Shown: piece by piece, positions 19,915-64,000 of the stretch | How the letters are laid out: the number at the start of each line of letters is the position of its first letter | How positions within the stretch are numbered: the first letter of the stretch is position 1 | DNA from: a virus | Length of the DNA stretch: 64,000 nucleotides | Strand: one strand, 5' to 3' | Virus record (IMG/VR): IMGVR_UViG_3300008262_000047 | The notes under the pieces: generated by a model | What the model was told of the DNA's origin: nothing | What the model saw: only the letters and a program-made list of their open reading frames with translations | Database searches by the model: none | Translations under genes and position numbers: made by a program

Positions 19915-21365
19915 TAATCTGGGGTATATCTGCCAATAGCCATGATGCTGCCATCTCTGTGGTCCAAGATGGCGAAATCTTGTATGCATCACAATCTGAA
20001 CGATATTCAGGAATAAAAAATGATGCTCATTTAAATCCGGGCATTGTTACAGACGCCAAACGATATGGTGAGCCTGATGTTGTTGTGTGGTATGAGAATC
20101 CTTGGCTGAAAACGTTACGGCAACTTCGTGCAGGACAAGGATGGATCAATAATAGTATTAGAGGGTATCTAAACAAATACAACATCACGGCACCCGTCAC
20201 TACTGTAGGACATCACCATAGTCATGCAGCGGGAGGATATTATACCTCCCCATTTAAAGAAGCGGCTGTATTAGTAATTGATGCCATCGGTGAGTTTGAC
20301 ACCACAACCATTTGGCATGGCACAGATAACAATCTAACAAAGAAATTCTCTGTTAAATATCCACATAGTTTAGGGTTGTGGTATTCAGCCATGACCCAAC
20401 GAATAGGATTAAAACCCAATGAAGAAGAATATATTCTCATGGGCATGGCGGCATATGGGGATCCTTTGAAGTATACTCCAATGATTTTGGAAGATTTCTT
20501 TGATAGCAGAGACATTTTGAAGTTGAATGATAATCTTCATCGAGGATGCATGAACTGGCGCCCTGAATTGAAATCTCAACAAGACTTGTATGATATTGCC
20601 GCGGCAACACAATTTGTCTACGAACTATATTTTCATGATTTAGTAGATAAGGCACAAAAACTCACAGGAAGTAAAAACTTAGTGTTGGGTGGCGGGTGTG
20701 CCTTGAATTGTGTTGCCAATAATATTGCCTTCCAATATTTTGAGAATGTCTGGATTATGCCAAATCCAGGCGATGCAGGAAATAGTCTCGGTGCCATTGC
20801 TGCTCATCAACAAGAATTCTTGAACTGGCGTGGTCCCTATCTTGGATTTGATATGGGTGTGAAATATCCCACGGGACAATTGATTGAAACACTACAGAAA
20901 GATGGCATTGCAGGTGTGGCATTTGGTCGTGCAGAATTTGGTCCTCGTGCTTTAGGACATAGAAGTTTATTGGCTGATCCTCGCGGTGATGACATCAAGG
21001 ATAAGGTGAATGTCATCAAGAAACGACAGAAGTTCCGTCCCTTTGCACCTGCCATTCTTGCCGAACATGCCCATGAGTATTTTCACATGCCTACTATGGA
21101 AAGTCCCTATATGCAATACACGGCATTGTGCAAACATCCTTTACAATTCCCTGCCATTGTACACGCAGATGGGACATCTCGCGTACAAACGGTTTCTCAA
21201 AAGGATTCACCCTACTTTCATAGTTTCTTACAAGAATGGTACAAAGAAACTGGATGCCCGATGATTTTAAATACCAGTTTAAACATTAAAGGTAAACCTA
21301 TGGTGAACAACCGCATTGATGCTATAGAGTTTTCCAAACGATATTCGGTGCCTGTACATACTTGA
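19911..21365 (+). CDS. Carbamoyltransferase (NodU/CmcH/TobZ family)
   Basis: HDAA, HHHSHAA, IDAIGE, GGCALNC, GRAEFGPRALG, FRPFAP, LNTSLN. Confidence 0.95.
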   Translation: MIIWGISANSHDAAISVVQDGEILYASQSERYSGIKNDAHLNPGIVTDAKRYGEPDVVVWYENPWLKTLRQLRAGQGWINNSIRGYLNKYNITAPVTTVGHHHSHAAGGYYTSPFKEAAVLVIDAIGEFDTTTIWHGTDNNLTKKFSVKYPHSLGLWYSAMTQRIGLKPNEEEYILMGMAAYGDPLKYTPMILEDFFDSRDILKLNDNLHRGCMNWRPELKSQQDLYDIAAATQFVYELYFHDLVDKAQKLTGSKNLVLGGGCALNCVANNIAFQYFENVWIMPNPGDAGNSLGAIAAHQQEFLNWRGPYLGFDMGVKYPTGQLIETLQKDGIAGVAFGRAEFGPRALGHRSLLADPRGDDIKDKVNVIKKRQKFRPFAPAILAEHAHEYFHMPTMESPYMQYTALCKHPLQFPAIVHADGTSRVQTVSQKDSPYFHSFLQEWYKETGCPMILNTSLNIKGKPMVNNRIDAIEFSKRYSVPVHT

Positions 21366-23268: not shown

Positions 23269-24015
23269 ATGTCACGTAAAAAGCGTCTCAAACTTGTTGC
23301 TCCTGAAATCCCCACGTTCAACAAGAATATCTTAACTTCCTCTGACCTCAAAAACATTTACCCTTTAACCCACAATCAAGAAACATTTTTCAATTTGTAT
23401 CGTAAAGGACATTGTGCCATGTTACTACATGGTGTTGCAGGAACAGGTAAAACGTATATCGCCATGTATAATGCATTTCAGGAAATTTTAAGTGAAGATG
23501 CTGAAGTTAAGAAACTTGTGATTGTTCGTTCAGCAGTACCATCAAGAGATATTGGTTTTCTCCCAGGCAATGAAAAAGATAAAGTAGAGGTCTATTCCCA
23601 ACCTTACCAAGAAATATGTGAGGATTTATTTCCAAGATTTGGACCCAAGGCATACACAAAACTAAAGGAACAAAATCTTGTTAATTTCATGGTGACGTCC
23701 TATGTTCGCGGATTGACGTTAGACAACTGTATTGTCATTGTGGATGAAGTTCAAAATCTCAACGACATGGAATTGAATAGCATCATGACTCGCGTTGGAC
23801 AAAACACCAAGATTATTTTCTGCGGAGATTTTCGTCAAACCGATTTGAATAGAAAACATGATGTGTCTGGATTAAGAAAGTTCATGCAAATTGCCAATCA
23901 TATGCAATCATTCCGTCATGTGGAATTCCAAGTGCAAGATATTGTTCGTAGCCAATTGGTGAAAGAATATATCATTGCCAGAATGCAATGCGAGGATTTA
24001 CAACTCGTATCTTGA
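23269..24015 (+). CDS. phoH: PhoH family ATPase
   Basis: GVAGTGKT, IGFLPG, VRGLTL, DEVQN, TRVG, GDFRQTD, DIVRS. Confidence 0.95.
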   Translation: MSRKKRLKLVAPEIPTFNKNILTSSDLKNIYPLTHNQETFFNLYRKGHCAMLLHGVAGTGKTYIAMYNAFQEILSEDAEVKKLVIVRSAVPSRDIGFLPGNEKDKVEVYSQPYQEICEDLFPRFGPKAYTKLKEQNLVNFMVTSYVRGLTLDNCIVIVDEVQNLNDMELNSIMTRVGQNTKIIFCGDFRQTDLNRKHDVSGLRKFMQIANHMQSFRHVEFQVQDIVRSQLVKEYIIARMQCEDLQLVS

Positions 24016-24040
24016 CAAACACAACGTAATAAGATAATTT
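24012..24040 (+). promoter_or_regulatory. Sigma70-type early promoter
   Basis: TTGACA-17 nt-TAATTT. Confidence 0.65.
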
Positions 24041-24046
24041 TATATC

Positions 24047-24724
24047 ATGAAAACATTTATACACAACCCCGTTGAAATTGAAGAAATCTCAGCCACTACT
24101 GGTACTGATGGGAATAGAGTTTATCAAACGCCTGACGGTAAACTCTATCCCTCAGTAACCACAGTGTTATCTCAGCATACCAAAAAAGGTATTATGGAGT
24201 GGAGAGAACGTGTAGGTGCGGATGAAGCCAATAAGATATCTCGGCAAGCCGCCACACGTGGCACCAAGTTTCATACCCTGGCGGAACGATATCTGAAAAA
24301 TGCTCCTCAGGAAAAACTGTTCCCAGATAGTTCATTAAAGTCAGTGCTAGACCAAGAACTGTTTGAGATTGCTAAATCAGAACTGAATAAGATTGACAAC
24401 ATTCGGGCTCAAGAAGTTGCATTATGGTCCCATCACTTACGATTGGCGGGGCGGGTGGATTGCATTGCTGAATATGAAGGAAAACTGAGTGTCATTGACT
24501 TCAAGACAGCTCGCAGAGAAAAAGATGTGGAGCATATTCAACATTACTTCATGCAGGCATCCGCATATGCTGTGATGTTTGAAGAACGTACAGGCATTCC
24601 TGTGAATAGATTGGTGATTGCCATTGCAGTTGAAGATGGATTCATGCAAGTATTTCAAAGTAAACGAGATGCTCATATTGAAGGATTATTATACTATCGT
24701 GATATGTACGAAGTAATGAAGTGA
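24047..24724 (+). CDS. PD-(D/E)xK exonuclease typical of T4-like phages
   Basis: YPSVTTVL, RGTKFH, AGRVDC, IDFKT, QASAY. Confidence 0.85.
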   Translation: MKTFIHNPVEIEEISATTGTDGNRVYQTPDGKLYPSVTTVLSQHTKKGIMEWRERVGADEANKISRQAATRGTKFHTLAERYLKNAPQEKLFPDSSLKSVLDQELFEIAKSELNKIDNIRAQEVALWSHHLRLAGRVDCIAEYEGKLSVIDFKTARREKDVEHIQHYFMQASAYAVMFEERTGIPVNRLVIAIAVEDGFMQVFQSKRDAHIEGLLYYRDMYEVMK

Positions 24725-49509: not shown

Positions 49510-52500
49510 ATGGCTATCAATTTAGGAACTTCACCCTACTATGATGATTTTGATGTTGAAAAGAATTTTCACCGAGTTCTTTTCAAGCCCGGTTATGCGG
49601 TTCAAGCCCGTGAACTTACTCAACTTCAAACCATTTTACAAAACCAAATACAACGTTTTGGTGACCATGTATTCAAAGATGGTTCTGTTGTAGTTGGTTG
49701 TGCTGAAACATTTCAGTTCAATGTACCATTTGTAAAAGTAAAAAACACCGATTCGGCAGGTATCACAATTGGTAGTTCTGCATATGAGTTATACAAAACA
49801 ACGCTTGTGAATGCCGTTGTTAGTAACGAACTGGGTGTATCTGCCAAAATTGTGCGCGTTGATGAAGATTCAACAGGACAACGAGTTCTGTATTTGAATT
49901 ACCAATCATCATTCTACGATGAAACAGCACAAGAACTCATCACTGTGTTTGCTGAAGATGAAGCACTCACTGTGGTTGATTCAACTGGTATAACACAATC
50001 ATTTAGATTTTCTGTTTCAAGTAGTTCAGCCACAGGTGTAGGTTCACTCTACACCATTGATGATGGCATTGTCTATGTTGATGGAACATTTGTCCGTCAT
50101 AACTCACAGACTAAAGTTCTGAGTTTCTATAGTAGTACACCAACAAAAAATATTGGATTCAGAATTATTACCAGTACGGTAACATCAAATGATGATGTAA
50201 GTTTACTTGATCCTGCTGCAGGGTCTTACAATTATGCAGCACCTGGCGGCGACCGATATAAACTTACCACACAACTTGAATCTTACGAAATAACAACAAC
50301 ACCTGACCAAGGATTCCATCTTCTATTCTTAGTTGAAGAAGGAAAGGTGAAGCGCGCATTTAACAAGCCACAATATTCAGAATTACAACGAGTATTGGCA
50401 CAACGAACATATGATGAATCAGGTAACTATGTTGTCACAGGATTAAACGTCAATGTTCGTGAACATTTAAAAACATCAACAAATAATGGTAAGTACACAG
50501 TAGAAACTATTGGCGATGCTTCCAAGTTGGTGTATGGTGTTGAACCCGGTAAAGCCTATGTAGAAGGATTTGATACAGAATTAAAGTCCACTGATTATCT
50601 TGCAGTTGATAAGGCAACTGATACATTACTAGTTGATGAACAACAAATTCCTACATTGTTTGGTAATTATGTTTATGTAAAGTCGGTGACCGGTAGTTGG
50701 TCATTGGCTGAAAACAATGCCACACTCAATCTCCGTGACGGTAGTAGTGTTTTAATTGCCACGGCAAAATTCCGTCTATTACGTTTCTATCGTGATGTTA
50801 CAGGAACAGGAAGTTCAAAATTCTACAAGTTATATTTGTATGGCATCACACTAGAAGCGGGCAAGACGGTTGATGATTTAACAACAATTCGTAACATCAC
50901 AACAACAAATTCTAGTGCCACGGTGGCCATTACACCTGGAGATGATTTAGGTTCAGTTACACAAACTGGATTTAAATTACACGAAGGCACATATAATTCA
51001 CTACTATTCCCCACAGGATCCCAAGCTGTTGTGCAGTATGAAAACGATACTGACTACTTCTTCTGGAAATATTTGGGTGAATATACATTCAACGGTTCAG
51101 GTAATGGTAGTATTGCCGTAAGTGGTGTGGGACAAACCTTGGCAGGCACTAGTTCTTCCTTTAAGGATGATTTCATTGTTGTTGAACCTGTAGGTGCATC
51201 ATACAACTTAGCAGAAATCACAGGATACACACCAACCAATACAACGTCAGGTACATTGGCAGTTGCCGTGGGTGATGCAGGCGCAAACAGAAAAGTATAT
51301 GCACGAGTTCGTCAAGGTAATGGTGCGCCTATTGATTTGACACTTGACACCACATTTTTGGCAGTGGATGGCTCAACATTAACTTCTACTAGTGCCACTA
51401 ATTTAGCAGCAGGTAGAATTTACCTAGGCGTATCACACGCATTACAACTTGTATCAGTACACATTGCCGACGATACTGAAGCATACCCATCAACTGAAAG
51501 TGGTTTGAGTGCATGGAGTAATGTCACTTCAGAATTTACTCTATATGAAAACTCAAATGACAACGTATACAATACATCATATGTTCAATATACAGGTGCT
51601 GAAGATTTAACTGAAAAGAAAATTGTGTTGAAGTTAAAAAACTTCACACGCTCATCAACATTAGGTTACCTAAATAGAAATTCATATCAAAGTGCCTTGA
51701 TTGATTTTGATCCAACAACACTTGATTACAACAAGCAAATCTTCACATATGAATTACCCGTGTATACATCAGAATCAACAGGCATCACATATGATATTCG
51801 TGATGTAATTGATTTCCGACCAACCGTTGAATTACGTTCGGGATATTCAGGTCAAACATATGTTGACGCCAAAAACAACAATATGAATGCATCACATAAT
51901 GTGCCTATCACAACGTTAGATACAACAAATGGTATAACGATACCTGATCCCGATAGCACATTGACGGCATCATTCACCATTAATTTACCCAGAAAGGATA
52001 AAGTTGTATTAACCCGCGATGGTGAATTTAAGGTGATTACTGGTGTGTCTGCACTTAACCCACAAACACCTGCCGATGCCATTAACGCCATGACATTGGC
52101 AGTCATAGAATTGGCACCATATCCATCATTATCAACATTTGCTTCTCGCGTCTACGACCGCGAAGATTATGCATCAATTGTTCGTTTAGTAGATAATCGT
52201 CGTTACACAATGCGTGACATTGGTGAACTTGAACAACGTGTGAATAGACTTGAATACTACACAGCATTGTCAATTGCTGAAAATCGTGCTGCCAATATGT
52301 TGATTACAGACGATTCAGGTAACGCCATGGTTAAGAAGGGTATTCTTGTTGATGCCTTCGATGGACATGATATTGGTAACGTGTTTGATGCTGATTACTA
52401 TGCATCAATTGATACCAAGAATAAAATATTACGAGCACCCTTCGCATTAAACAACATTGAACTTCATTTACCTTCTGATGAATCTGAGGTCATCACAACA

Positions 52501-55218
52501 GGATATTCAGGTACATTTACCACTATCACAGAAAATAAATTTGCGTCAAAGGGTCGTGTCTGTGGTAATTTGTTACTAGGTAATTACATGGCAGGCGATT
52601 TACGTTTGGATCCGCCACAAATCACATGGGTAGATACACAAGTTCGTCCTGATGTTCAAGTAAATTATAACGGCGTTAATGATGGATGGGAATTCAATAC
52701 AAACGCCTTCAAGTTACACTGGAACAGTTGGAAAACCATATGGCAAGGTGTTGAAACAACCAATCTTCCTGTATTGAGTGTCACTACAGTTGCAGGTTTG
52801 GTAGGTGTTCGTGGTAGTGAAGCGGCACCATTAATTTCAGATGTCACAAAAAACATCATTACATCAGGTAAACTCCCAGAAAACAATCTTAGAAATATTG
52901 GTGTTCGTGTATTAGACGTTTCTGTTGTCCCATACATTGAAAAGCAAATCATCACATTCACTGCAACAGGATTGAAACCCGGTACGGCTGTTCAGGCATA
53001 TTTTGACGGCGAAGATGTCTCAGCACATTGCCGTTACTTTACATTGCCTACCGGTGTTACTGTAAATACAATACGTAATTTGTCAGAAGGCATATTGTCA
53101 TCACAATATACACCAAGTGCTTCGGCATACGGTGATCCATTAATTGTTGCAACCGATGGTACCTTAGTGGGACAATTCTTAATCCCTGCGAATACATTCC
53201 GCGTGGGAAATAAGGTGTTTAAATTAACAGATGCTTCAGAAACAACATCAGCGGCTGCACAATTACAATCATCAGGTGTCCCTAATATTGATGATGGTTC
53301 AATTTCATCAACACGATTCCCAGCAATTCGTCAAGATGCTCTTTCTGAAACACAAAACAATGTTGTGAGTCGTTTGTTGTTGTCTAATCCATCAACATTC
53401 AATCCCGCATCATTTGGCGATCCCATGGCACAGACCTTCATCATTGAAGGACATCCCGATGGTGTGTTCTTGAATAAGGTTGAATTGTTCTTCAAGAGAA
53501 AGTCATCAACCAAGAAGTTCACCATTCAAATCCGTGAAGTCATTAATGGATTCCCGGGCAATAAAATTGTACCGTTCAGTACCAAGACATTAAATGCGTC
53601 AGAAATTTCCGTCTCAGGTACTGCAAATACAGCAACCACATTTACATTTGAATCTCCGGTATATCTAAAGAACAACACAGAATATGCTCTTATGTTATTG
53701 CCTGAAAACAACACGACTGAATATGAAGTGTGGGTTTCTGAATTGGGTGAAAATTTAATAGGCACTAACGAACGTATCACACAACAACCTTATGTTGGTG
53801 TATTGTTCATTCCTAATAATAACACCATCTGGACAGCATTAGAATCTGAAGATTTGAAATTCAAAATGTATTCTAGAAGTTTTGAAACAACACGTACCGT
53901 CATTCTTGAATCTAAGCCCATTGATTACGTCACCATTTCACAAACAGGTACGTATGTTTTGAAACCAGGTGATGTTGTTCAAGTATTTGATGACACACAA
54001 ACAGTATTGCCCGGAACAATTCAAGTATCAGAAAATGATACCATTGCGGGTTCAAGTACAGACTTCACCGACCTATCAGTGGGTGACCAACTTCGTGTAT
54101 TTGCACCTTCGACAACAACCAATTTTACAGGTACTATCAGTATAACAGGTACTGCTGTCACTGGTTCAGCCACAACATTCACCTCAGACCTACGTGTGGG
54201 TGACATTCTATATCAAGATGATAACATCACTGTTATTGGAAAGGTGGCATCAATTCAATCTGACACAGCATTAACACTTGAAGCCTCAGGGTCAGGTACT
54301 ACATTGAATTATCGAGCACGCGCTTTGTTAGGTACAGTAAAAGACATCATCTCTGATACAAGTTTAGTTCTTGAAAATGATGCAGTGAATATCACAGGAA
54401 CAGGATTAACCTTCTATAAGGATGATACAACAGCTACAGGTTATGTCACGAAGGTGTATGGCACAACGGCTGAAATATTCATAACCTCAGGTAGTTTGGC
54501 AACAAACGATACATTCACACGTGGTGCGTCTACATTCACCTTTGATAGTATTGATAACAAGCAAGCTACAGCACTTTCACCTAACTTAGGTATCTTGAGT
54601 TTAAATCCCTCAACACAAGTGAAATTATCATACACACTACTTGATACATCAAGTACATATTATCCCGGGTTAGGCGCATATATTACTGTGAACAATAATG
54701 ATACTGTTGAGTTGCCTAAAGAATTCACAATTTATTCTCATTCAAACACAACAGGAAACATTCCTACATTGAAGATAAAGGCGGAATTATCAACCAATAA
54801 TTCATTGTTAACACCTGTGTTAGACACACGAAAAATTTCTGTTCTAACATTGGCGAATGACATTGCCGCATCTGGTTCTTCAGATGCCGTGTATGTCACA
54901 CGAACTGTAACATTGGATGGTGACGGCGCCGATGACTTGCGTGTATTCTTCGATATGATTCGTCCTGAACAATGTTCTGTAATTGTAGAAGCCAAGATGC
55001 AGAATGTAGAAGATGATAGACCGTTTGCTGATGTTGATTGGGTAACGTTGAATGAACAGGCTCCTGTTGTATATAATGGTAACATCTATCAGGAATATAG
55101 TTACAGTGTGTCAGCTCCTTCATCATTTGCCAAGTTTGCTGTGAAAATTACAATGAACTCCACTGATAAGAGTAAAACTCCTCTCATTAAGAATCTCAGA
55201 GCAGTAGCGGTGATTTAA
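49510..55218 (+). CDS. Large virion protein (DUF4815/VrlC-like)
   Basis: PYYDDFD, QARELTQLQ, RTYDESGNY, RRYTMRDIG, DPMAQTF. Confidence 0.85.
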   Translation: MAINLGTSPYYDDFDVEKNFHRVLFKPGYAVQARELTQLQTILQNQIQRFGDHVFKDGSVVVGCAETFQFNVPFVKVKNTDSAGITIGSSAYELYKTTLVNAVVSNELGVSAKIVRVDEDSTGQRVLYLNYQSSFYDETAQELITVFAEDEALTVVDSTGITQSFRFSVSSSSATGVGSLYTIDDGIVYVDGTFVRHNSQTKVLSFYSSTPTKNIGFRIITSTVTSNDDVSLLDPAAGSYNYAAPGGDRYKLTTQLESYEITTTPDQGFHLLFLVEEGKVKRAFNKPQYSELQRVLAQRTYDESGNYVVTGLNVNVREHLKTSTNNGKYTVETIGDASKLVYGVEPGKAYVEGFDTELKSTDYLAVDKATDTLLVDEQQIPTLFGNYVYVKSVTGSWSLAENNATLNLRDGSSVLIATAKFRLLRFYRDVTGTGSSKFYKLYLYGITLEAGKTVDDLTTIRNITTTNSSATVAITPGDDLGSVTQTGFKLHEGTYNSLLFPTGSQAVVQYENDTDYFFWKYLGEYTFNGSGNGSIAVSGVGQTLAGTSSSFKDDFIVVEPVGASYNLAEITGYTPTNTTSGTLAVAVGDAGANRKVYARVRQGNGAPIDLTLDTTFLAVDGSTLTSTSATNLAAGRIYLGVSHALQLVSVHIADDTEAYPSTESGLSAWSNVTSEFTLYENSNDNVYNTSYVQYTGAEDLTEKKIVLKLKNFTRSSTLGYLNRNSYQSALIDFDPTTLDYNKQIFTYELPVYTSESTGITYDIRDVIDFRPTVELRSGYSGQTYVDAKNNNMNASHNVPITTLDTTNGITIPDPDSTLTASFTINLPRKDKVVLTRDGEFKVITGVSALNPQTPADAINAMTLAVIELAPYPSLSTFASRVYDREDYASIVRLVDNRRYTMRDIGELEQRVNRLEYYTALSIAENRAANMLITDDSGNAMVKKGILVDAFDGHDIGNVFDADYYASIDTKNKILRAPFALNNIELHLPSDESEVITTGYSGTFTTITENKFASKGRVCGNLLLGNYMAGDLRLDPPQITWVDTQVRPDVQVNYNGVNDGWEFNTNAFKLHWNSWKTIWQGVETTNLPVLSVTTVAGLVGVRGSEAAPLISDVTKNIITSGKLPENNLRNIGVRVLDVSVVPYIEKQIITFTATGLKPGTAVQAYFDGEDVSAHCRYFTLPTGVTVNTIRNLSEGILSSQYTPSASAYGDPLIVATDGTLVGQFLIPANTFRVGNKVFKLTDASETTSAAAQLQSSGVPNIDDGSISSTRFPAIRQDALSETQNNVVSRLLLSNPSTFNPASFGDPMAQTFIIEGHPDGVFLNKVELFFKRKSSTKKFTIQIREVINGFPGNKIVPFSTKTLNASEISVSGTANTATTFTFESPVYLKNNTEYALMLLPENNTTEYEVWVSELGENLIGTNERITQQPYVGVLFIPNNNTIWTALESEDLKFKMYSRSFETTRTVILESKPIDYVTISQTGTYVLKPGDVVQVFDDTQTVLPGTIQVSENDTIAGSSTDFTDLSVGDQLRVFAPSTTTNFTGTISITGTAVTGSATTFTSDLRVGDILYQDDNITVIGKVASIQSDTALTLEASGSGTTLNYRARALLGTVKDIISDTSLVLENDAVNITGTGLTFYKDDTTATGYVTKVYGTTAEIFITSGSLATNDTFTRGASTFTFDSIDNKQATALSPNLGILSLNPSTQVKLSYTLLDTSSTYYPGLGAYITVNNNDTVELPKEFTIYSHSNTTGNIPTLKIKAELSTNNSLLTPVLDTRKISVLTLANDIAASGSSDAVYVTRTVTLDGDGADDLRVFFDMIRPEQCSVIVEAKMQNVEDDRPFADVDWVTLNEQAPVVYNGNIYQEYSYSVSAPSSFAKFAVKITMNSTDKSKTPLIKNLRAVAVI

Positions 55219-55409
55219 TGGAAACGCCATTTGTACGTGATAAGCATTCCAAGGCACTTATAAATACTGACACAACAGTTATTTTTGCTCGGCGTCAAGA
55301 AAAGCGTCAAGTGCAGAAGATATCCGAGCTTCAAGAAGAAATTACTGAAGTCAAAAACGACTTATTAGAAATAAAACAATTATTACAATCAATAATCAAC
55401 AGAGGATAA
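55218..55409 (+). CDS. Small coiled-coil hypothetical protein
   Basis: VRDKHSKALIN...EIKQLL. Confidence 0.65.
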   Translation: METPFVRDKHSKALINTDTTVIFARRQEKRQVQKISELQEEITEVKNDLLEIKQLLQSIINRG

Positions 55410-55412
55410 CTT

Positions 55413-56363
55413 ATGGCTACTTTAACGCTTCGCCAAACAGCCCCAGCAGCAGGAACAAACAAAGGTGCCCCACTTACTAATGCAGAAGTTGACGCCAACT
55501 TCAACAGTTTAGATGTTGCCAAATTGGAAAAATCAGGCGGCACAATGACGGGAACTTTAGTTCTTGTAACAGGAACAACAACCATTGCTCCTGTAAAACT
55601 TGTGTCTGGCACAAACTTAACAACTCCACAAGCAGGTGCCGTCGAATTTAACGGCACGAACTTGTTTTTCACCCCAAGTTCAACACGCAAAACTGTCGCC
55701 TTCACTGATAGTAACATCACAGGCACATCGGCAGGTTGGACAACTGGTCGCACCGTGACATTCGCCACAGGCGATGTAACAGGTAACTTCACCATTGATG
55801 GTTCTGCAAACGTATCAAACGTAGCGTTAACAATTGCCGCCAACTCAGTTGCTTTAGGCACCGATACTACAGGTGATTATGTCGCATCATTAGTGGCAGG
55901 CACAGGTGTTACATTAACAAATAATAGTGGTGAGAGTGCCACACCCACTGTTGCCATTGGTCAAGCCGTAGGAACAGCAAGTAACGTGACATTTGGAAGT
56001 ATCAATGTGGGCTCAGCAACAGGTGCTGCCACAGGACAAATCAAGGCATCAGGTGACATCATTGCCTTCTCATCCTCAGATGCAGGATTAAAGACAGATG
56101 TTGCAGTTATTTCTGATGCTCTCACAAAGGTGAAGGCACTTCGCGGTGTCACATATACTTGGAATGAAGAAGCTAATGCATTAGGATTACATGGGGCAGA
56201 TACAGGTGTTATTGCACAAGACGTTGCCGGTGTACTACCTGAAGTTGTAACAACCCGTGAAAGTGGTCACATGGCTGTGAAGTATGAAAAGATGATTGGG
56301 TTGTTGATTGAAGCCATTAAGGAATTGGATGATAAGTTAAGTAAGTGCAACTGCACTAAGTAA
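55413..56363 (+). CDS. Tail fibre with C-terminal intramolecular chaperone (Peptidase S74)
   Basis: SSDAGLK, GVIAQDV, LPEVV, VKYEKMIGLLIEAIKEL. Confidence 0.85.
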   Translation: MATLTLRQTAPAAGTNKGAPLTNAEVDANFNSLDVAKLEKSGGTMTGTLVLVTGTTTIAPVKLVSGTNLTTPQAGAVEFNGTNLFFTPSSTRKTVAFTDSNITGTSAGWTTGRTVTFATGDVTGNFTIDGSANVSNVALTIAANSVALGTDTTGDYVASLVAGTGVTLTNNSGESATPTVAIGQAVGTASNVTFGSINVGSATGAATGQIKASGDIIAFSSSDAGLKTDVAVISDALTKVKALRGVTYTWNEEANALGLHGADTGVIAQDVAGVLPEVVTTRESGHMAVKYEKMIGLLIEAIKELDDKLSKCNCTK

Positions 56364-56384
56364 TAACACAGGAGAACATAGACA

Positions 56385-57713
56385 ATGGCCATCGTATCCA
56401 GCGGGCAAATTTCAATTAAAGATGTAGGCGACGAAAAGGGATTGCCGTCAAGTGAACTATCCCTTCAGTCATTGTCTACAAACAATGTTAACACATTGGA
56501 TCCTTCTCCTAAGGTGCCTGCTAACACTTCGGGTGCGGTAGGTAATTATCCTGACGGTTCAACACCTCATGCTATCAGTGAGTTTTTTGCCTATAATCAT
56601 AATTTTACTACTACAACTACCGCGGCACCAACAACTACAACATCCACATCAACAACAACGACGACATCAACAACAGAACCACCAACAACGACGACATCAA
56701 CAACATCTACAACATCTACAACATCTACAACAGAACCACCAACAACGACGACATCAACAACATCTACAACATCTACAACAGAACCACCAACAACGACGAC
56801 ATCAACAACAGAACCACCAACAACGACGACATCTACATCTACAACATCTACAACATCTACAACATCTACAACATCTACATCAACAACATCAACTACATCA
56901 ACAACCACAGCGGCGCTCGGTGATTGTTGGACCGTATACAACACTTCACCATTCAACAATCAACAAACCTATGTGTTCGACTATATACCCTATGGTAGTG
57001 CTGGATATATACAAGGATCATTGGATTTCGGCCAATTTGTTAATTTATGTGTAGCACCAGGTACGTTGATTGTAGATGTAAGCGGACAAGGTGGATCTAC
57101 ATCAGGTGGATTTGGAGTATGTACCAACGACTCTCAATGTTCAGGCTCACCCCCAGCAACAACTACTACAACTACAACAGCAGCCACAACTACTACAACA
57201 GCAGCCACAACTACTACAACAGCAGTCTGTTATAGTTCAACATTGGGACTTTCAGGTGTTCAAGGAAGTATATCTGGAGCCTGTTCAGCCGCAGCACAAT
57301 TCACATATTATGTGGGTGGAACCAAGTTGTATACTGACTCGGGATGTGGCACGTTTGCAGACGCCGGTTATTATGGCGATGGAGGTGGGGTATACTATCA
57401 AGTAACAGGCGCAGGTAACTTGACAGGCCCAACATCGTGCCCAGGCGGAACAACGACAACAACTGCAGCTCCCACAACAACTACAACAGCAGCTCCCACA
57501 ACAACTACAACAGCAGCAGCAACAACAACTACAACAGCAGCAGCAACAACAACAACGACAACATGTGTCGTGGGTTGTTTACCTGGCACATCAACATGTA
57601 TAGGTGACGCTGCTGTATGTGACCTTCAAAATGACGATTGCACAATCACATATGGATATTTGGTACAAAACTGTGATCCTGGCTGTTGTTCAGGTGGTGC
57701 ATGTATCTGCTAA
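56385..57713 (+). CDS. Mucin-like Thr/Ser/Pro-repeat, Cys-rich virion protein (candidate fibre-tip adhesin)
   Basis: MAIVSSGQIS...ISEFF N-domain; three Thr tracts separated by Cys-containing domains; AGGAG RBS. Confidence 0.7.
   Translation: MAIVSSGQISIKDVGDEKGLPSSELSLQSLSTNNVNTLDPSPKVPANTSGAVGNYPDGSTPHAISEFFAYNHNFTTTTTAAPTTTTSTSTTTTTSTTEPPTTTTSTTSTTSTTSTTEPPTTTTSTTSTTSTTEPPTTTTSTTEPPTTTTSTSTTSTTSTTSTTSTSTTSTTSTTTAALGDCWTVYNTSPFNNQQTYVFDYIPYGSAGYIQGSLDFGQFVNLCVAPGTLIVDVSGQGGSTSGGFGVCTNDSQCSGSPPATTTTTTTAATTTTTAATTTTTAVCYSSTLGLSGVQGSISGACSAAAQFTYYVGGTKLYTDSGCGTFADAGYYGDGGGVYYQVTGAGNLTGPTSCPGGTTTTTAAPTTTTTAAPTTTTTAAATTTTTAAATTTTTTCVVGCLPGTSTCIGDAAVCDLQNDDCTITYGYLVQNCDPGCCSGGACIC
56607..56909 (+). 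repeat. Coding tandem repeats (ACAACATCT)n and TTTTSTTEPP units
   Basis: Directly visible; shorter Thr tracts near 57157-57221 and 57449-57563. Confidence 0.95.
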
Positions 57714-57742
57714 ATCATTAACAACAAGGTGATATTTACTTT

Positions 57743-58693
57743 ATGAAAAACTTACGTTATATATCAGCCCAACCTGCCATTGATTATTACACATGGCAGG
57801 TTGAGGTTATGATACACAATTTTTTAAAAAATGGTTTAAATCCAAACAATATAGATATTGTATGTTCCATTAAAAACAATCATATCCCTGATGCTTGGAT
57901 TAAATTAGCTAATCACTATAACACGGTTCGATTCTTTTTTTATAATGATGACAGAGAAAATTCGGTATATATTTCTTCAATTCGTCCACACATTCTACAA
58001 AAACATTTTGAGAAGCATCCTTATTTAAAAGATGAAGCCATTATGTATCATGATTGCGATATCATTCTCACGAAGCCCCCACAATGGGACCATTTAGTGC
58101 ATGACGATGTTTGGTATTTAAGTGACACGCGCTATTACATTGGAGCAGAATATATTAAAAGCAAAAAATGTGGTGTGTACGAACGCATGTGTGAAATTGT
58201 AGGTATAAGTGAAGATGTTCCGGTACAATATGAGATGCACAGTGGAGGTGCTCAATATCTCATGAAAAACATTGATGCTGCTTTTTGGAAAAAGGTGTAT
58301 GAGGATTCTGAAAAATTGTATCAATTTTTTCTTGACCATCTGAAAGCATTTCCTCAAACCGATAAATATCACCCCATACAAAAATGGACTGCTGATATGT
58401 GGGCAGTTTTATGGAATGGTTGGTATTTTGGACATGATACCAAAGTGGTGGACGAATTAGAGTTCACATGGCCTATGCACGGTCTTGACTTTTGGGAGAA
58501 ATGTACTATCATGCATAATGCGGGAGTTACAGGAGAAACAGCAGATAAGGACAGAACTTTTTTTAAGGGTAAGTATGTTGACGGAAAATTACCGTATAAT
58601 AATATTACTCTTGAAAATTATAACGAAAAGATGTGTACATATAAGTATGTACAAGAAATTCTTGAAACCGCTAAAACGAGTTGTTTACTATGA
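57743..58693 (+). CDS. Putative protein O-glycosyltransferase resembling plant SGT1/HPAT (GT96/GT95)
   Basis: YYTWQVEVMIHNF, YISSIRP, YHDCD (DxD), GGAQY, WTADMW. Confidence 0.6.
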   Translation: MKNLRYISAQPAIDYYTWQVEVMIHNFLKNGLNPNNIDIVCSIKNNHIPDAWIKLANHYNTVRFFFYNDDRENSVYISSIRPHILQKHFEKHPYLKDEAIMYHDCDIILTKPPQWDHLVHDDVWYLSDTRYYIGAEYIKSKKCGVYERMCEIVGISEDVPVQYEMHSGGAQYLMKNIDAAFWKKVYEDSEKLYQFFLDHLKAFPQTDKYHPIQKWTADMWAVLWNGWYFGHDTKVVDELEFTWPMHGLDFWEKCTIMHNAGVTGETADKDRTFFKGKYVDGKLPYNNITLENYNEKMCTYKYVQEILETAKTSCLL

Positions 58694-59259
58694 GATATGA
58701 TTTTGTTGAAATAGGCACATGCGACTACCACACGTTATTAGAAGGGTGTACACCTGAACAAATAGGTTTGTCAGTCGAACCTGTAAAAACATATCTAGAC
58801 CGATTACCCGATAAACCTAATGTAACTAAGATAAACGTTGCTATATCAGCAGAAAACAACATAGTAGATTTATTTTGGGTTGAACCCGAAAATCAAGAAA
58901 AGTATAATTTAGGTTTCACAAAAGGTTGGGCCACTATAATTAAACCCCACCGAGGTCATTCTGAAGCAAAAAAGATGTTAGAGACAGGAATGTTAACTAA
59001 CCATAAAATAGAAGCCATCACATGGTCTACCCTTGTGGAACGTTATCAAATCGAATCTGTGGATTTAGTTAAGATAGACACAGAGGGTCATGATTGTGTA
59101 GTTGTTAACAGTATACTTGATTCTTCTGTTCATCCAATACAAATAGAGTTTGAAATAACACATTGCTTAAAAGAAGAATTGGCTCAGACATATTCACGCC
59201 TTCAAAAAAATAGATATACATTAATTATAGAAGGTGAAGATGCCGTATGGAGAAGATGA
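58690..59259 (+). CDS. FkbM-family methyltransferase
   Basis: FVEIGT, SVEP, VKIDTEGHD, IEFE. Confidence 0.85.
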   Translation: MRYDFVEIGTCDYHTLLEGCTPEQIGLSVEPVKTYLDRLPDKPNVTKINVAISAENNIVDLFWVEPENQEKYNLGFTKGWATIIKPHRGHSEAKKMLETGMLTNHKIEAITWSTLVERYQIESVDLVKIDTEGHDCVVVNSILDSSVHPIQIEFEITHCLKEELAQTYSRLQKNRYTLIIEGEDAVWRR

Positions 59260-59886
59260 ATGATACCAAAAATAATTCATCAAATATGGGTAGGGGATTT
59301 TAAATTACCCAAGCGAGAACAGAAACTAGCAAATGAAATAAAAGAGATGCACTCGGATTACGAATATATTTTCTGGTCTTCGCCCCCACCATTATCTAAA
59401 AATATTCAAAATTGGTATGACAAATTCTACTCAATAAAAAACTATGCTTTTTGTGCAGACTTGTTACGTATTTGGGCTGTTAAAGAATTTGGAGGATTCT
59501 ACTTGGATATTGATTTTAAACCGGTGAATTCATTGGACGATTTTTTAAATTATGATGGGGTATTTTTATACCACAACGAAGGCGACTTAACTATTCCAAA
59601 TAATGTATTTGGTGCAAAAAAAGATTTAGATGTTCTAGAATACTGTACACAACAAATAAATGATAGCAATAATTGGTATGGGCCTAGTTGGTTTGGTAGT
59701 GTTGTTAAATCTTCTTTAGGGTATAGTTATGAAACCACACACGAAGTTATTAAAAACAAGATGAGGGAAAAGAATATAGAATATTTTGTGTACGGAGAAT
59801 TTGAAAATAAATATGCAAAACATTTATCATTGTACAGTTGGTCGCCTGAAATTTGGAATAGATTAAATAACCAGGAACAGTTATGA
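59260..59886 (+). CDS. Glycosyltransferase family 32 (OCH1-like)
   Basis: MIPKIIHQIWVG, ADLLR, GGFYLDID, GP. Confidence 0.88.
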   Translation: MIPKIIHQIWVGDFKLPKREQKLANEIKEMHSDYEYIFWSSPPPLSKNIQNWYDKFYSIKNYAFCADLLRIWAVKEFGGFYLDIDFKPVNSLDDFLNYDGVFLYHNEGDLTIPNNVFGAKKDLDVLEYCTQQINDSNNWYGPSWFGSVVKSSLGYSYETTHEVIKNKMREKNIEYFVYGEFENKYAKHLSLYSWSPEIWNRLNNQEQL

Positions 59887-60668
59887 AAAAAGTTAGTTTT
59901 GTCTGTACATCATTTAGAAGATATACATGTGTCAATAGAATCATTGCGCAGTTTAATGCACAAACATACCCAAACAAAGAACTGATTATCCTAAATACAG
60001 ATATGGAATATCCTATGTCATTGGGATTTTCTGATGACCGTATTGTATTAATAAACAATAACACTGATATGCAAACAGGTCTTCCGTATACTAATCGAGG
60101 ACAAATTTGTCGTGATGCAGTAATCTACGCCACAGGTGATTATTTCATGTTGGCTGATGATGACGACATTTACCTACCTTGGCATATTCAACAAGCTGTA
60201 GATAAAATAGAAGAAGTGGGTACAGATGCATGGAAACCTCAAAAAAGTTTCTTTGCCACTCAACATAAATTAGAACTTACACAAAATACATTGGAAGCAA
60301 GTGTTATTGTGAAAATGCCTCGGATTCGACAAATTGGATTTCGCTCAGACATCACAGGATATGAGGGATTGAGTTGGTATACTAAATTACGCGATGAAAA
60401 ACAATTAGATGAACATTACACACACTACGTTCCCTCATATTGTTTCAATTGGTCAGACCCACATGAAATAGCAGGACATAAACAAAGTGGAAATATTAAT
60501 GACCCCAATAATTTTGAACAACATAAAGCAGCATCACAAGATTATGCAAAAGAACCTTTACGTAATGACATGAACCTCACCGACGTATATGAAAAATATT
60601 ACGTCTTTTTACGAAATAATAGTGAACTATTTCCTAGTGATTTAATCCTTAAATATGTGAAAGAATAA
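59883..60668 (+). CDS. GT-A fold glycosyltransferase (GT2-like)
   Basis: AQTYPNKELIIL, RG...RD, ATGDYFMLADDDDIYLPWHI. Confidence 0.85.
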   Translation: MKKVSFVCTSFRRYTCVNRIIAQFNAQTYPNKELIILNTDMEYPMSLGFSDDRIVLINNNTDMQTGLPYTNRGQICRDAVIYATGDYFMLADDDDIYLPWHIQQAVDKIEEVGTDAWKPQKSFFATQHKLELTQNTLEASVIVKMPRIRQIGFRSDITGYEGLSWYTKLRDEKQLDEHYTHYVPSYCFNWSDPHEIAGHKQSGNINDPNNFEQHKAASQDYAKEPLRNDMNLTDVYEKYYVFLRNNSELFPSDLILKYVKE

Positions 60669-61336
60669 TGCAACCAAACACATTTCCTGATGTAGCCAAC
60701 ATCATTGATACATCGTCTGTGCCCATTTTAATACTTGTGATATCTGAAGGGTGTGAAAATGGATTAAAACCAGAACAGCAGCAGTTAGAACAAAAGCTAC
60801 AAGAACATCCTACACCTGTGGTATATTACACCATGTGTATCCCAGAACATCTCATGGGATTTCCTCGTGCCCAAACTCCCACATTATACTATTTTCTTCC
60901 GAAAAATCAAACTCCTGTGTTCTGGCGATTTGCCATATTCAATAACACATTGAATGATGATTTAAACATCATCACAAAAATGATGACAGGATTGACATAT
61001 GAACAAGCTCGTTTCACACCTGAAGAACAAGAAACCATTTTAAAGGTTGATTATTTTTTAGAACAGGAGAAGGAAACCCTTCATAAGTTTCCTTCAGTAT
61101 TTCAACAGGCACGGAATCTTGCCAAAGAAATGTGGAAAACAGGAAAAAACGCCGCAAAAGGATTGCCTGTCATTGTTCCTACTGAAGTGGGATTTGAACG
61201 TATGAATATTTGTCAGTCATGTGACAAGTTGGAAAAAGATGCATTTCGCTGTACTGAGTGTGGTTGTTTCATGAAAACCAAGACTCAACTCGCCTCAGCG
61301 TCATGTCCATTAAATAAATGGGCACCGCATGTATAA
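60668..61336 (+). CDS. Thioredoxin-like fold plus Cys-rich DUF6171-like domain
   Basis: TPTLYYF; RMNICQSC...CTECGCFM...CPLNKW. Confidence 0.6.
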   Translation: MQPNTFPDVANIIDTSSVPILILVISEGCENGLKPEQQQLEQKLQEHPTPVVYYTMCIPEHLMGFPRAQTPTLYYFLPKNQTPVFWRFAIFNNTLNDDLNIITKMMTGLTYEQARFTPEEQETILKVDYFLEQEKETLHKFPSVFQQARNLAKEMWKTGKNAAKGLPVIVPTEVGFERMNICQSCDKLEKDAFRCTECGCFMKTKTQLASASCPLNKWAPHV

Positions 61337-61339
61337 ATA
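61332..61339 (+). promoter_or_regulatory. T4-type late promoter
   Basis: TATAAATA. Confidence 0.7.
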
Positions 61340-61367
61340 CTATAGAACGATTAATTAGGATTTCTCA

Positions 61368-61781
61368 ATGGCAACGTTAACATTACGAACAGTTAAAGGA
61401 TCAACATTAACACATCAAGAACTTGATGACAATCTCTCAAACTTGAATAGTTTCAAGGTTGAAGGTCGTGCAGGAACGTTAACAACAACAAGTACGTCAT
61501 TAAATCAACTATTGGATTCTGTTGCAGCATCTTCTGTTAGAACATTGCGATACATTGTTCAAGTTGCCAACACAACTACGAGTGAGTTTCATGCCACATC
61601 TCTCATGATTATTCATGATGGAACCACTGTGTATTTAACTGAATATGGCACTGTATTGACAGGAAACTCTTTGGCAACATTTGATGCTGATATTAATAGT
61701 GGAAATCTTCGTATTTTAGTTACGCCTACAAATGCATCATCAACGGTGTTTCGTTTTTCTGCTATGACAATTCAGGCATAA
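61368..61781 (+). CDS. Virion structural protein
   Basis: MATLTLRTVKGSTLTHQELDDN shares its N-terminus with the 55413 fibre; IHDGTTVYLTEYG. Confidence 0.7.
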   Translation: MATLTLRTVKGSTLTHQELDDNLSNLNSFKVEGRAGTLTTTSTSLNQLLDSVAASSVRTLRYIVQVANTTTSEFHATSLMIIHDGTTVYLTEYGTVLTGNSLATFDADINSGNLRILVTPTNASSTVFRFSAMTIQA

Positions 61782-61791
61782 TTTCAAAAAC

Positions 61792-61799
61792 TATAAATA
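61792..61799 (+). promoter_or_regulatory. T4-type late promoter
   Basis: TATAAATA. Confidence 0.7.
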
Positions 61800-61807
61800 T
61801 TCAACAT

Positions 61808-62140
61808 ATGGCAACTGCTCGTAATTTAGTTATTGACCAAGGTAGTACATATTCAATTTCCATTGAACTGTCTGACGCCTTGGGCAATCCTTTAGATTTA
61901 ACTGATTATACCATTCGTGCTCAAATGCGTAAAAGTTATGGGTCGAATACGTATACTCAATTCACAACTTCTGCAGGTGATGAACCTGAGAATGGGGTGA
62001 TTACATTATCATTAACATCAACTCAAACAGGAGCATTACGTTTTGGTCGATATGTCTATGATATTGAAATTGAAAATGATGATGTAATTACCAGAGTTCT
62101 TGAAGGGATAGTAACCGTAACACCCGAGGTCACACGATAA
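61808..62140 (+). CDS. Conserved virion adaptor-like protein
   Basis: NLVIDQG, AQMRKSY, GRYVYDIE, RVLEGIVTVTPEVT. Confidence 0.7.
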   Translation: MATARNLVIDQGSTYSISIELSDALGNPLDLTDYTIRAQMRKSYGSNTYTQFTTSAGDEPENGVITLSLTSTQTGALRFGRYVYDIEIENDDVITRVLEGIVTVTPEVTR

Positions 62141-62352
62141 TGGCACTCAAAGTACAAGTATCAACACCTCAAAGAATTAATACAAATGTAAAAAAGGTTT
62201 CGTTACCTCTAGTTAATTTAGAAGAATTGAAGAACGTGAATAAAGATAATTTAGAAGATGGCGCCACTTTGATATGGAATGAAACGGAACAACGTTGGGA
62301 TGCACAGCAAATTCAAGCATCAGCAACGAATATAGATGGCGGAACATATTAA
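62140..62352 (+). CDS. Small structural hypothetical protein
   Basis: DGATLIWN...IDGGTY. Confidence 0.6.
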   Translation: MALKVQVSTPQRINTNVKKVSLPLVNLEELKNVNKDNLEDGATLIWNETEQRWDAQQIQASATNIDGGTY

Positions 62353-62373
62353 AAAACCCACAGGAGATTTTCC

Positions 62374-64000
62374 ATGTCAACAGTAATTCAAATTAAGCGT
62401 TCTTCAGGATCAACAGCACCAGCAACATCTGCCTTAGCAGAAGGCGAATTAGCGTATAGTCAAGACCGCTCCAACAGCGGCGCCGGCGCTATTCTCTACA
62501 TCGAATCTGTAGGTTCAGACGGTACTACCCAAGTTATTGATAAAGTAGGTGGTAAATACTACACCAACACAGTTGATGCCTTCTTAGTTCCTGCCACAGG
62601 AACAGTGGGCGCAAAGGTGGAATTAAAGGATGCCGATGCTACACATTCTGTCACATTAAAGGCACCTAACACAGTTGCAGCCAACGTTACATACACATTA
62701 CCTTCAACATTCAGTGCAGACCAATATTTAAAGACTGACGGTTCAGGTAATCTTTCATTTGCTGCCGTTCCATCAGGATCCTTCACAATTGCAGGTGACA
62801 CAGGTACTGACAATTTCACAACAGGTGAAACATTAACATTCACCGGTGGCGAAGGTATTGATACATCAATTACCGATAACGTAGTAACAATTTCAGCAGA
62901 AGATGCATCTGATACCAACAAGGGTATTGCATCATTCAACAGTACCAACTTCACAGTATCATCAGGTAACGTTGTTATCAACTCAGTACAAGCCACAAAG
63001 GTTGATATTGCAGGCGGCACATCATTAACATCATTGGCTGATTCAGATGAATTCTTGGTCTATGATGCCTCAGCAGAAGCAAATCGTCGCATCACAGCAG
63101 AAAACGTTGCAGATTACATCTATGCCGGATTGTCAGGTGATATCAGTGTAACTGAAGCAGGTGTAGTTTCTATTGCCGCTAACTCAGTAGCACTAGGTAC
63201 AGACACAACAGGTAACTATGTTGCTACTGTTGCGGGTACAGCAAATCAAATTTCCATCACTGGCTCAGGCTCAGAAACGGCTGCTGTTACAGTTGCATTA
63301 ACTGAAGATGTGGCATTGGTAGGTGATTTGACAGTTGGTGGTAACGACATCAAGATGAGTGGTGGCACAACAGCCATTACATTCTCAGGCTCAGGTGACG
63401 TTGCAGTAGCAGGTGATTTAACTGTTACAGGTAATGACATCAAGTCCTCATCAGCCACAGCACTTACTCTTTCAGGTGCTGATGTCGCAGTTGCAGGTGA
63501 TTTGACAGTTACAGGTAACGATATCAAATCCTCATCAGCAACAGCACTCACATTGTCAGGCGCCAATGTTGAAGTTAAGGGTGATTTACAAGTTACAGGT
63601 AACGATATCAAGTCATCAACAGGCGCAACTGCCTTGACACTTGATGGCGCCAACGTAACTGTGGCAGGTAACTTAACAGTTAACGGTTCATCAACAATTG
63701 TAAACTCAACAACTGTAACAATTGATGACGTACTCTTGAAGTTGGCTGATAACAACACAGGTAACTCAGTTGACTCAGGTGTCTATGCTGAATATGTTGA
63801 ATCATCAACAACGAAGTATGCTGGTTTCTTCCGCGATGCGTCTGATAACAACATCTTCAAGTTCTTCAAAGGATTAGAATCAGAACCATCAACAACTGTT
63901 AACGTAAGTGGTACAGGTTACTCAGTTGGTACAATCTTAGCCAACTTGACAGGCGGTACTGTTTCAAGTCTAGCTTCAGCAATCGGTGTTGCAGATGGTG
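62374..64000 (+). CDS. Long tail fibre-like protein, truncated at window end
   Basis: MSTVIQIKRSSGSTAP...LAEGELAY; AGGAG RBS; frame open to window end; absent from ORF track because no stop. Confidence 0.8.
   Translation, partial: MSTVIQIKRSSGSTAPATSALAEGELAYSQDRSNSGAGAILYIESVGSDGTTQVIDKVGGKYYTNTVDAFLVPATGTVGAKVELKDADATHSVTLKAPNTVAANVTYTLPSTFSADQYLKTDGSGNLSFAAVPSGSFTIAGDTGTDNFTTGETLTFTGGEGIDTSITDNVVTISAEDASDTNKGIASFNSTNFTVSSGNVVINSVQATKVDIAGGTSLTSLADSDEFLVYDASAEANRRITAENVADYIYAGLSGDISVTEAGVVSIAANSVALGTDTTGNYVATVAGTANQISITGSGSETAAVTVALTEDVALVGDLTVGGNDIKMSGGTTAITFSGSGDVAVAGDLTVTGNDIKSSSATALTLSGADVAVAGDLTVTGNDIKSSSATALTLSGANVEVKGDLQVTGNDIKSSTGATALTLDGANVTVAGNLTVNGSSTIVNSTTVTIDDVLLKLADNNTGNSVDSGVYAEYVESSTTKYAGFFRDASDNNIFKFFKGLESEPSTTVNVSGTGYSVGTILANLTGGTVSSLASAIGVADG
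63310..63690 (+). repeat. About 28-aa coding repeats VAVAGDLTVTGNDIKSSSATALTLSGA
   Basis: Four full copies plus a partial one. Confidence 0.85.

Follow-up and report, generated by a model that had tools for sequence, protein, structure and literature searches.

The window analyzed here, i.e., the whole stretch of 64,000 nucleotides from the virus record IMGVR_UViG_3300008262_000047 in IMG/VR, carries the baseplate hub and wedge proteins, tail-tube cap and ATP-dependent ligase of a T4-like myovirus. In its fibre region, a tail-fibre gene is followed on the same strand by a gene for a mucin-like protein and by a glycosyltransferase (GT) gene at 57743-58693, after which come genes for a methyltransferase, two further glycosyltransferases and a DUF6171 protein (Table 1). 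The product of 57743-58693 is probably a cytoplasmic enzyme that initiates O-glycosylation on Thr and Ser, with the mucin-like fibre protein encoded directly upstream as its acceptor.

The Thr tracts of the proposed acceptor, at 56607-56915 (103 amino acids), 57147-57224 (26) and 57450-57563 (38), alternate with Cys-rich modules, and the protein has no match in Pfam, PHROG or NCBIfam. Throughout this work, an open reading frame (ORF) was scored as carrying a long tract if it had at least 60% Ser plus Thr over 40 residues, and as carrying a short poly-Thr tag if it had at least 7 Thr in 10 residues. The mucin-like protein is the sole poly-Thr-tagged ORF among the 91 in the window, and it is the upstream neighbour of the GT. 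An identical GT is found on other environmental contigs in the same gene order, and no near-identical DNA to the window was found in the phage collection. On two of these contigs (L168 5688-6971 and L170 451-1191) the only differences in the mucin-like protein are indels of 7 and 8 residues within its Thr tracts, which reflect either repeat-number polymorphism or assembly slippage. The gene call of the mucin-like protein begins only after the first tract on one such contig.

Table 1. Genes, protein motifs and late-promoter words of the glycosyltransferase locus.
Feature	Position	Strand	Remarks
Tail-fibre protein with C-terminal S74 intramolecular chaperone domain	55413-56363	+	PF13884 E 3e-14; tail-fibre PHROGs
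Mucin-like protein, 442 amino acids, proposed acceptor	56385-57713	+	131 Thr, 51 Ser, 18 Cys
GT	57743-58693	+	PHROG 4417 member
Motif YYTWQ	57785-57799	+	residues 15-19; start of predicted helix 1; W18 invariant, Q19 at least 90% conserved
Motif HNF	57815-57823	+	residues 25-27 (translation of exact coordinates)
Motif YISSIRP (Y-x3-RP)	57968-57988	+	residues 76-82
Motif HDCD	58049-58060	+	residues 103-106; DxD metal/nucleotide-sugar motif, end of predicted strand beta-4
Motif GGAQ	58244-58255	+	G169 and Q171 invariant, even across 150 members
Motif WTADMW	58385-58402	+	residues 215-220; M219 and W220 invariant; family signature used for finding relatives
HNAG...K275 segment	58514-58567	+	H258, G261 and K275 invariant
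FkbM-family methyltransferase	58690-59259	+	PF05050 E 5e-9; TIGR01444
GT32-like DxD glycosyltransferase (Gly_transf_sug)	59260-59886	+	PF04488 E 3e-12; candidate elongating enzyme
GT2 glycosyltransferase	59883-60668	+	PF00535 E 2e-6; candidate elongating enzyme
222-residue protein with C-terminal Cys-rich DUF6171	60668-61336	+	PF19668 E 4e-6
TATAAATA, T4-type late-promoter motif	55259-55266	+	ahead of fibre gene
TATAAATA, all plus-strand copies	22908, 24727, 25601, 35205, 41978, 46857, 55259, 61332, 61792	+	
TATAAATA, minus-strand copy	33540	-	

The GT gene is an uninterrupted ATG frame of 316 codons. The original prediction, which was made from the sequence alone, had named the motif order YYTWQ/HNF, Y-x3-RP, HDCD and WTADMW, and all of these are present by translation and lie in the core of a conserved family. 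In an alignment of 38 sequences with 34-71% identity to the query (A1), W18, Y76, D104, D106, G169, Q171, M219, W220, H258, G261 and K275 are invariant, while Q19, N26 and W215 are conserved to at least 90%. The conserved columns of A1 stay at 90% or above in 150 members and in 70 further members, and D104 and D106 are also invariant in alignment A3. Since the same columns form the conserved core of a large family, the motifs are not chance words. A set of 5.8 billion proteins gave 2,333 homologous matches. Clustering at 50% identity gave 847 representatives, and IMG/VR yielded no fewer than 599 matches. The only label for the protein is PHROG 4417 ('unknown function', E 9e-69), and none of the Pfam and NCBIfam models covers it. 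A Lamp2-like match (E 0.054) was dismissed as noise. Sequence searches against solved structures, with the GT protein and with the A1 profile, gave nothing meaningful, and our literature searches found no description of the GT family or of its pairing with poly-Thr proteins in phages. The family is thus large, unnamed and without prior description in the literature searched.

In the predicted model, the GT is a confidently folded, single Rossmann-like alpha/beta/alpha domain of the GT-A superfamily, and the DxD (H103-D104-C105-D106) comes after strand 99-103, the usual place for it in GT-A enzymes. The modelled fold and the conserved DxD bear out the glycosyltransferase identity that had been proposed. 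D104 and D106 align with the DxD of a GT8 profile (hhalign). By analogy with GT8 enzymes, GGAQ is possibly the counterpart of their active-site Gln loop, and the HNAG...K275 segment may supply a second metal ligand and a diphosphate-binding Lys, like the GT8 'HxxGxxKPW'. The protein has no hydrophobic segment (maximum Kyte-Doolittle value 0.51) and should therefore be soluble and cytoplasmic. Because the fold is GT8/HPAT-like, the enzyme is probably retaining and would form an alpha-linked sugar. The GT8-type retaining GT-A enzymes to which it can be compared (LgtC, glycogenin, GlyE and the xylosyltransferase domain of LARGE1, together with GT24 UGGT and GT77 AgtA) differ from it in sequence, as identity to the GT8-type fold matches is 6-12% and Pfam Glyco_transf_8 (PF01501) has no match at E<=1 in 118 members and none at E<=0.01 in 87 more. 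A few members show weak matches to Stealth_CR2 (E 0.016-0.17), which might indicate transfer of a sugar-1-phosphate to Thr/Ser (phosphoglycosylation by Stealth-like chemistry). However, every Stealth match falls far below the Pfam cut-off, and the DxD with the distal His/Lys pattern fits Leloir GT-A enzymes, so that we consider phosphoglycosylation very unlikely.

The pairing with Thr-rich proteins is seen far beyond the window. We analyzed 80 viral loci from IMG/VR with a GT homologue at 45-59% identity. A long-tract ORF is present within 5 kb in 62 of these. Upstream DNA was long enough to judge its position in 74 loci, and in 54 of them it is the immediate upstream neighbour in the same orientation. 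Short tags give a similar picture, with a tagged ORF immediately upstream in 60/80 viral loci and within 3 kb in 67/80, while only 136 of the 2,074 ORFs in all 160 loci are tagged. When the tracts were masked, 45 of the 54 upstream Thr-rich proteins of environmental carriers were still joined by single linkage, and we therefore restrict the claim that carriers are non-homologous to the examples from cultured phages and to the N-terminal module of the mucin-like protein in the window. This module had no matches in the viral-locus comparison.

Homologues in cultured phages have 20-39% identity and keep the pairing. In Enterococcus phage phiFL2A, the major tail (tail-tube) protein ends in a run of 21 Thr/Ser residues and the GT begins at its stop codon. 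In Lactobacillus phage PLE3, the 126-residue Thr/Pro protein gp08 precedes the GT, and the C-terminus of the major head protein consists of seven Thr. The pairing is also present in Chryseobacterium phage MA9V-3. In LP65, orf49 is a GT homologue (hhalign probability 99.5%), preceded by orf50 and by the structural protein orf51, verified by mass spectrometry, both of which end in Thr-rich repeats. These repeats are of TTTETQTQTQ type, a Thr/Gln variant of the tag (L164 5225-6107, minus strand). Firmicutes prophages have poly-Thr ends on a tail-tube-sized protein just upstream of the GT and on a second protein of 100 or 400 amino acids about 2 kb upstream, and capsid-sized proteins are among the carriers. 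The GT gene thus belongs to the structural module and neighbours tagged virion proteins. In the window it lies between fibre genes, and in its relatives it comes directly after tail-tube, head or other structural proteins that end in poly-Thr.

Presence and absence of the GT also follow the tag. We compared nine siphophages with complete genomes whose tail-tube proteins are homologous. The GT is found only in phiFL2A and R3.3, and these are the only two with poly-Thr tail-tube ends, which are absent from the seven siphophages that do not have the GT. In the phiFL2A record (NC_013643; L161 4001-4877) the GT homologue is broken into two frames (23415-24137 and 24085-24288), where the annotation has only the 93-nucleotide gp49, while the homologue in phiFL1A is one frame. 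The split is due to either a sequencing error or a recent pseudogene.

The genes downstream of the GT could form a glycan-modifying cassette with it. The ATG of the FkbM gene overlaps the GT stop codon (ATGA), and the FkbM protein is a candidate sugar O-methyltransferase. Ahead of the fibre gene lies the motif TATAAATA, and its next plus-strand copy is at 61332-61339. Since these two copies bracket the block, the genes from the fibre through DUF6171 look like one late transcription unit. The window holds ten TATAAATA words against 4.8 expected, most of which are just upstream of gene starts when compared by eye with the ORF list, consistent with T4-type late promoters. Scans for sigma-70 promoters and terminators over 55000-62500 gave counts at shuffle level.

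The presence of two more glycosyltransferases in the cassette raises the question of which enzyme starts the glycan. If the first sugar on Thr were added by the GT2, the GT32-like or a host enzyme, the GT would elongate rather than initiate. Many homologues carry a second GT domain, which fits such a role. That most fusion partners are further GT domains is also in line with the initiating enzyme proposed here. However, the cassette neighbours are seldom found beside homologues in viral loci (GT2 in 12/80, GT32 in 7/80, DUF6171 in 2/80 and FkbM in 1/80), while the poly-Thr ORF is kept at 60 to 67 of the same 80. In addition, the complete genome of PLE3 has no other annotated glycosyltransferase, and a second one was not seen in the structural modules of phiFL-type phages. 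Only the 57743-58693-type GT accompanies the tag from one phage lineage to the next. Because of this tracking, and because the other cassette enzymes are rarely conserved, the GT is the candidate for the first transfer, and a purely elongating role appears unlikely. The Thr/Ser-rich partner conserved in phages and in bacteriocin clusters, together with the rare retention of other glycosyltransferases, speaks for the initiating Thr/Ser O-glycosyltransferase originally predicted, while the activity itself is our interpretation of these patterns.

The DUF6171 domain is fused to the GT C-terminus in three homologues (P0074, P0086 and P0121) and in 4 of 87 long representatives. Such fusions are about 390-400 amino acids long and form Atlas clusters of 129 and 56 members, which suggests that DUF6171 and the GT are functionally linked. 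A complex prediction of the GT with the DUF6171 domain (residues 140-222 of 60668-61336) scored 0.00 and is neutral on binding.

Homologues outside phages are found in a different setting. In 46 longer homologues on Bacteroidota chromosomes, the GT domain is followed by a GT7C/GT2-like domain, and a poly-Thr ORF is nearby in only one of the 46 loci. Instead, these fused GTs are accompanied by a LanC-like protein, directly adjacent (34/46), a C39-peptidase ABC exporter (28/46), HlyD (21/46), a C39-VKOR-thioredoxin protein (19/46), a LanB dehydratase (6/46) and a SPASM-like protein (5/46). Short ORFs with double-glycine leaders, i.e., precursor peptides, lie beside the fused GTs, and at four loci (L010, L013, L015 and L031) they have Thr/Pro-rich C-terminal tails. 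One homologue is fused to a radical-SAM/SPASM peptide maturase. The clusters, in which radical-SAM genes are also present, occur in Chitinophaga, Pedobacter, Sphingobacterium and Mucilaginibacter, for example at L010 3835-4391 and 8004-10943 and also at L009, L013, L015, L021, L023 and L031. As the neighbours are peptide-bacteriocin genes, the family accompanies ribosomal peptides in cells too and not polysaccharide loci, and the precursor peptides are candidates for glycosylated RiPPs (ribosomally synthesized and post-translationally modified peptides).

These clusters also bear on the nature of the acceptor. Most GT-A enzymes act on glycans, and phages are known to encode glycosyltransferases that modify the envelope or glycosylate DNA. 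A host envelope glycan, teichoic acid, lipopolysaccharide or phage DNA might therefore be the acceptor, with the poly-Thr neighbourhood being incidental, and about one fifth of the viral loci do indeed have no nearby tag. Against this, the immediate same-strand pairing with poly-Thr recurs in T4-like myoviruses, Herelleviridae, Firmicutes siphophages and Bacteroidota phages, GT presence coincides with tag presence in related phages, the GT gene lies within what appears to be a late structural unit, and cellular homologues belong to peptide-bacteriocin clusters rather than polysaccharide loci. We therefore assign a non-protein acceptor very little probability.

With the upstream protein as the acceptor, the following mechanism can be proposed. 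The GT would be co-transcribed with the fibre genes late in infection, and would then, depending on metal and its DxD, move the first sugar from a nucleotide sugar onto the hydroxyls of Thr (and Ser) in the mucin-like protein, which is Cys-rich and associated with the fibre and offers long Thr-rich tracts. The sugar configuration would probably be retained, as expected from the fold. The GT32-like and GT2 enzymes might extend the glycan and the FkbM methyltransferase might methylate it, and the virion would thereby gain glycosylated linkers that are stiff, hydrated and resistant to proteases, a possible benefit to the phage.

Several points weigh against assigning the enzyme in this way. A tagged ORF within 3 kb is missing at 13/80 viral loci and at 14/34 single-domain genomic loci, and adjacency of genes is no proof of an enzyme-substrate relation. 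By sequence, the enzyme is tied only weakly to the characterised GT families, as the Pfam GT models have no match and hhalign against a two-sequence GT8 profile gave a probability of 73% over the N-terminal 100 residues only. Both the retaining chemistry and the donor sugar are derived from fold neighbours in predicted models. Moreover, GT8-type enzymes known to act on Ser-rich adhesins (e.g., GlyE) extend the glycan and do not start it, and no biochemical or mass-spectrometric evidence for the function of the family was found in the searchable literature. Nevertheless, we regard an initiating Thr/Ser O-glycosyltransferase acting on the mucin-like fibre protein as the probable role of 57743-58693. 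More tentatively, and with slightly less than even confidence, the whole family can be viewed as widespread cytoplasmic peptide Thr-O-glycosyltransferases, sister to the extensin enzymes of plants (GT95/GT96), for which poly-Thr serves as a portable, genetically encoded tag. Phages would then use them to sugar-coat capsids, tail tubes and fibres, while the fused forms of Bacteroidota would glycosylate bacteriocin-like peptides.

Outside the cassette, a 1,902-residue protein at 49510-55218, just upstream of the fibre block, carries DUF4815 (Pfam label from an identical contig) and is a large baseplate- or fibre-associated protein. About 0.7 kb past the end of the window, the contig L168 encodes at 13990-14709 a 239-residue protein with an Mtd_N (major tropism determinant N-terminal) domain, which is another receptor-binding-type module of the same fibre region. 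A Nol-like carbamoyltransferase at 19911-21365 (PHROG 1601, E 1.5e-103) is an auxiliary metabolic gene adjoining the DNA ligase.

The plant HPAT and SGT1 enzymes were the first comparison to be made for this protein, which was originally predicted to be a eukaryote-like enzyme. ESM Atlas searches from two family members, 34% identical to each other, gave PF23452 (HPAT) for 20/30 and 19/30 of the named neighbours, with scores of 0.97-0.98 that are embedding scores and come without alignment or E-value. Both queries also matched a chlorophyte cluster, in which 98-100% of the members carry HPAT, with TM 0.74-0.76 over 282 residues between predicted structures. A separate search from LP65 orf49 gave just 4 relatives, none with a Pfam label, and no close relatives of P0253 were found in IMG/VR. 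In contrast to the Atlas results, the profile hidden Markov model of PF23452 had no significant match in 205 family members (one match at E 0.23), and no match in 50 viral records, in 10 homologue-bearing bacterial genomes or in two sets of 401 genomes (two phyla). The likeness to plant GT95 enzymes is therefore a resemblance rather than a demonstrated membership in their family, and the phage GT is probably a distant relation of GT95-type enzymes, judged from embeddings and predicted structures.

Plant HPAT/SGT1 enzymes are membrane-anchored. The phage GT has no counterpart to the Golgi type II anchor of HPATs, as it has no hydrophobic segment, and its partner tracts are poly-Thr. HPATs have been described as GT8-related (PMC4908140), which agrees with the fold matches of the phage GT, and they are predicted to be GT-A-like, while a novel fold is predicted for GT96 (PMC8476585). 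The hydroxyproline O-arabinosyltransferases HPAT1-3 of plants and algae (GT95; PF23452) and the peptidyl-serine alpha-galactosyltransferase SGT1 (GT96) attach the initial sugar straight to hydroxyl groups of extended polypeptides with repeats (PMC4908140), and the phage GT would act on such a substrate too. However, the plant enzymes are ER/Golgi-localised (PMC4908140), whereas the phage GT is soluble and has about 316 residues. The likely acceptor of the phage GT is Thr in poly-Thr tracts, whereas the plant acceptors are hydroxyproline (Hyp), or Ser in Ser-Hyp4.

Other glycosyltransferases share single traits with the phage GT. In contrast to GT8-type enzymes, it has conserved motifs of its own (GGAQ, WTADMW and HNAG...K) in the C-terminal half. 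The animal mucin-type polypeptide GalNAc-transferases of GT27 are also initiating, retaining GT-A enzymes with Thr/Ser-rich tracts (PTS tracts) as acceptors; however, they are outside the 50 best fold matches of the phage GT, and they are membrane proteins of the Golgi that include a lectin domain. SunS, GccA and ThuS, the glycosyltransferases of glycocins and related RiPPs, are GT2 peptide glycosyltransferases. They are cytoplasmic and glycosylate ribosomal peptides before C39-ABC export, and the fused Bacteroidota GTs are found in clusters of this kind, but SunS, GccA and ThuS belong to another, inverting family whose products are often S-linked, and no sequence relation to the phage GT was seen.

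If our reading is true, many unrelated phages carry a two-part module of a poly-Thr tag and one soluble transferase that sugar-coats particle proteins. Among the carriers are T4-like phages from marine or fresh water, Firmicutes phages from gut and dairy sources and phages of Bacteroidota. Being coated with sugar would affect how stable the phages are, how they adhere and how antibodies recognise them in phage therapy, and it would matter for the mass-spectrometric annotation of virion proteins. The plant HPAT/SGT1-type enzymes would gain a prokaryotic or viral relative, and the sister-group view would imply that the O-glycosylation of plant cell-wall proteins and a prokaryotic/viral system of tag and transferase go back to one origin. 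The GT could also provide a simple soluble enzyme for producing mucin-like glycoproteins in bacteria, and the homologues in bacteriocin clusters would indicate a new class of glycosylated peptides. Direct tests should be easy, as the GT is small and soluble and carriers are cultured.

As far as we know, it is mainly in mycobacteriophages that experiments have demonstrated glycosylation of virions by enzymes of the phage itself, and this is the closest known phenomenon. It was reportedly described for Che8, Corndog and Myrna by Freeman et al. in Cell Host Microbe in 2023. In mycobacteriophages, the genes of the phage-encoded glycosyltransferases are reported to be surrounded by structural genes, and the enzymes to act on C-terminal extensions of capsid and tail-tube subunits. 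This resembles the Firmicutes relatives of the GT, which carry poly-Thr C-terminal tags on tail-tube-sized and capsid-sized proteins. In comparison with mycobacteriophages, the present GT family differs in the logic of the poly-Thr tag, in being spread over many lineages of phages and in the mucin-like fibre protein, and we know of no earlier description of these features.

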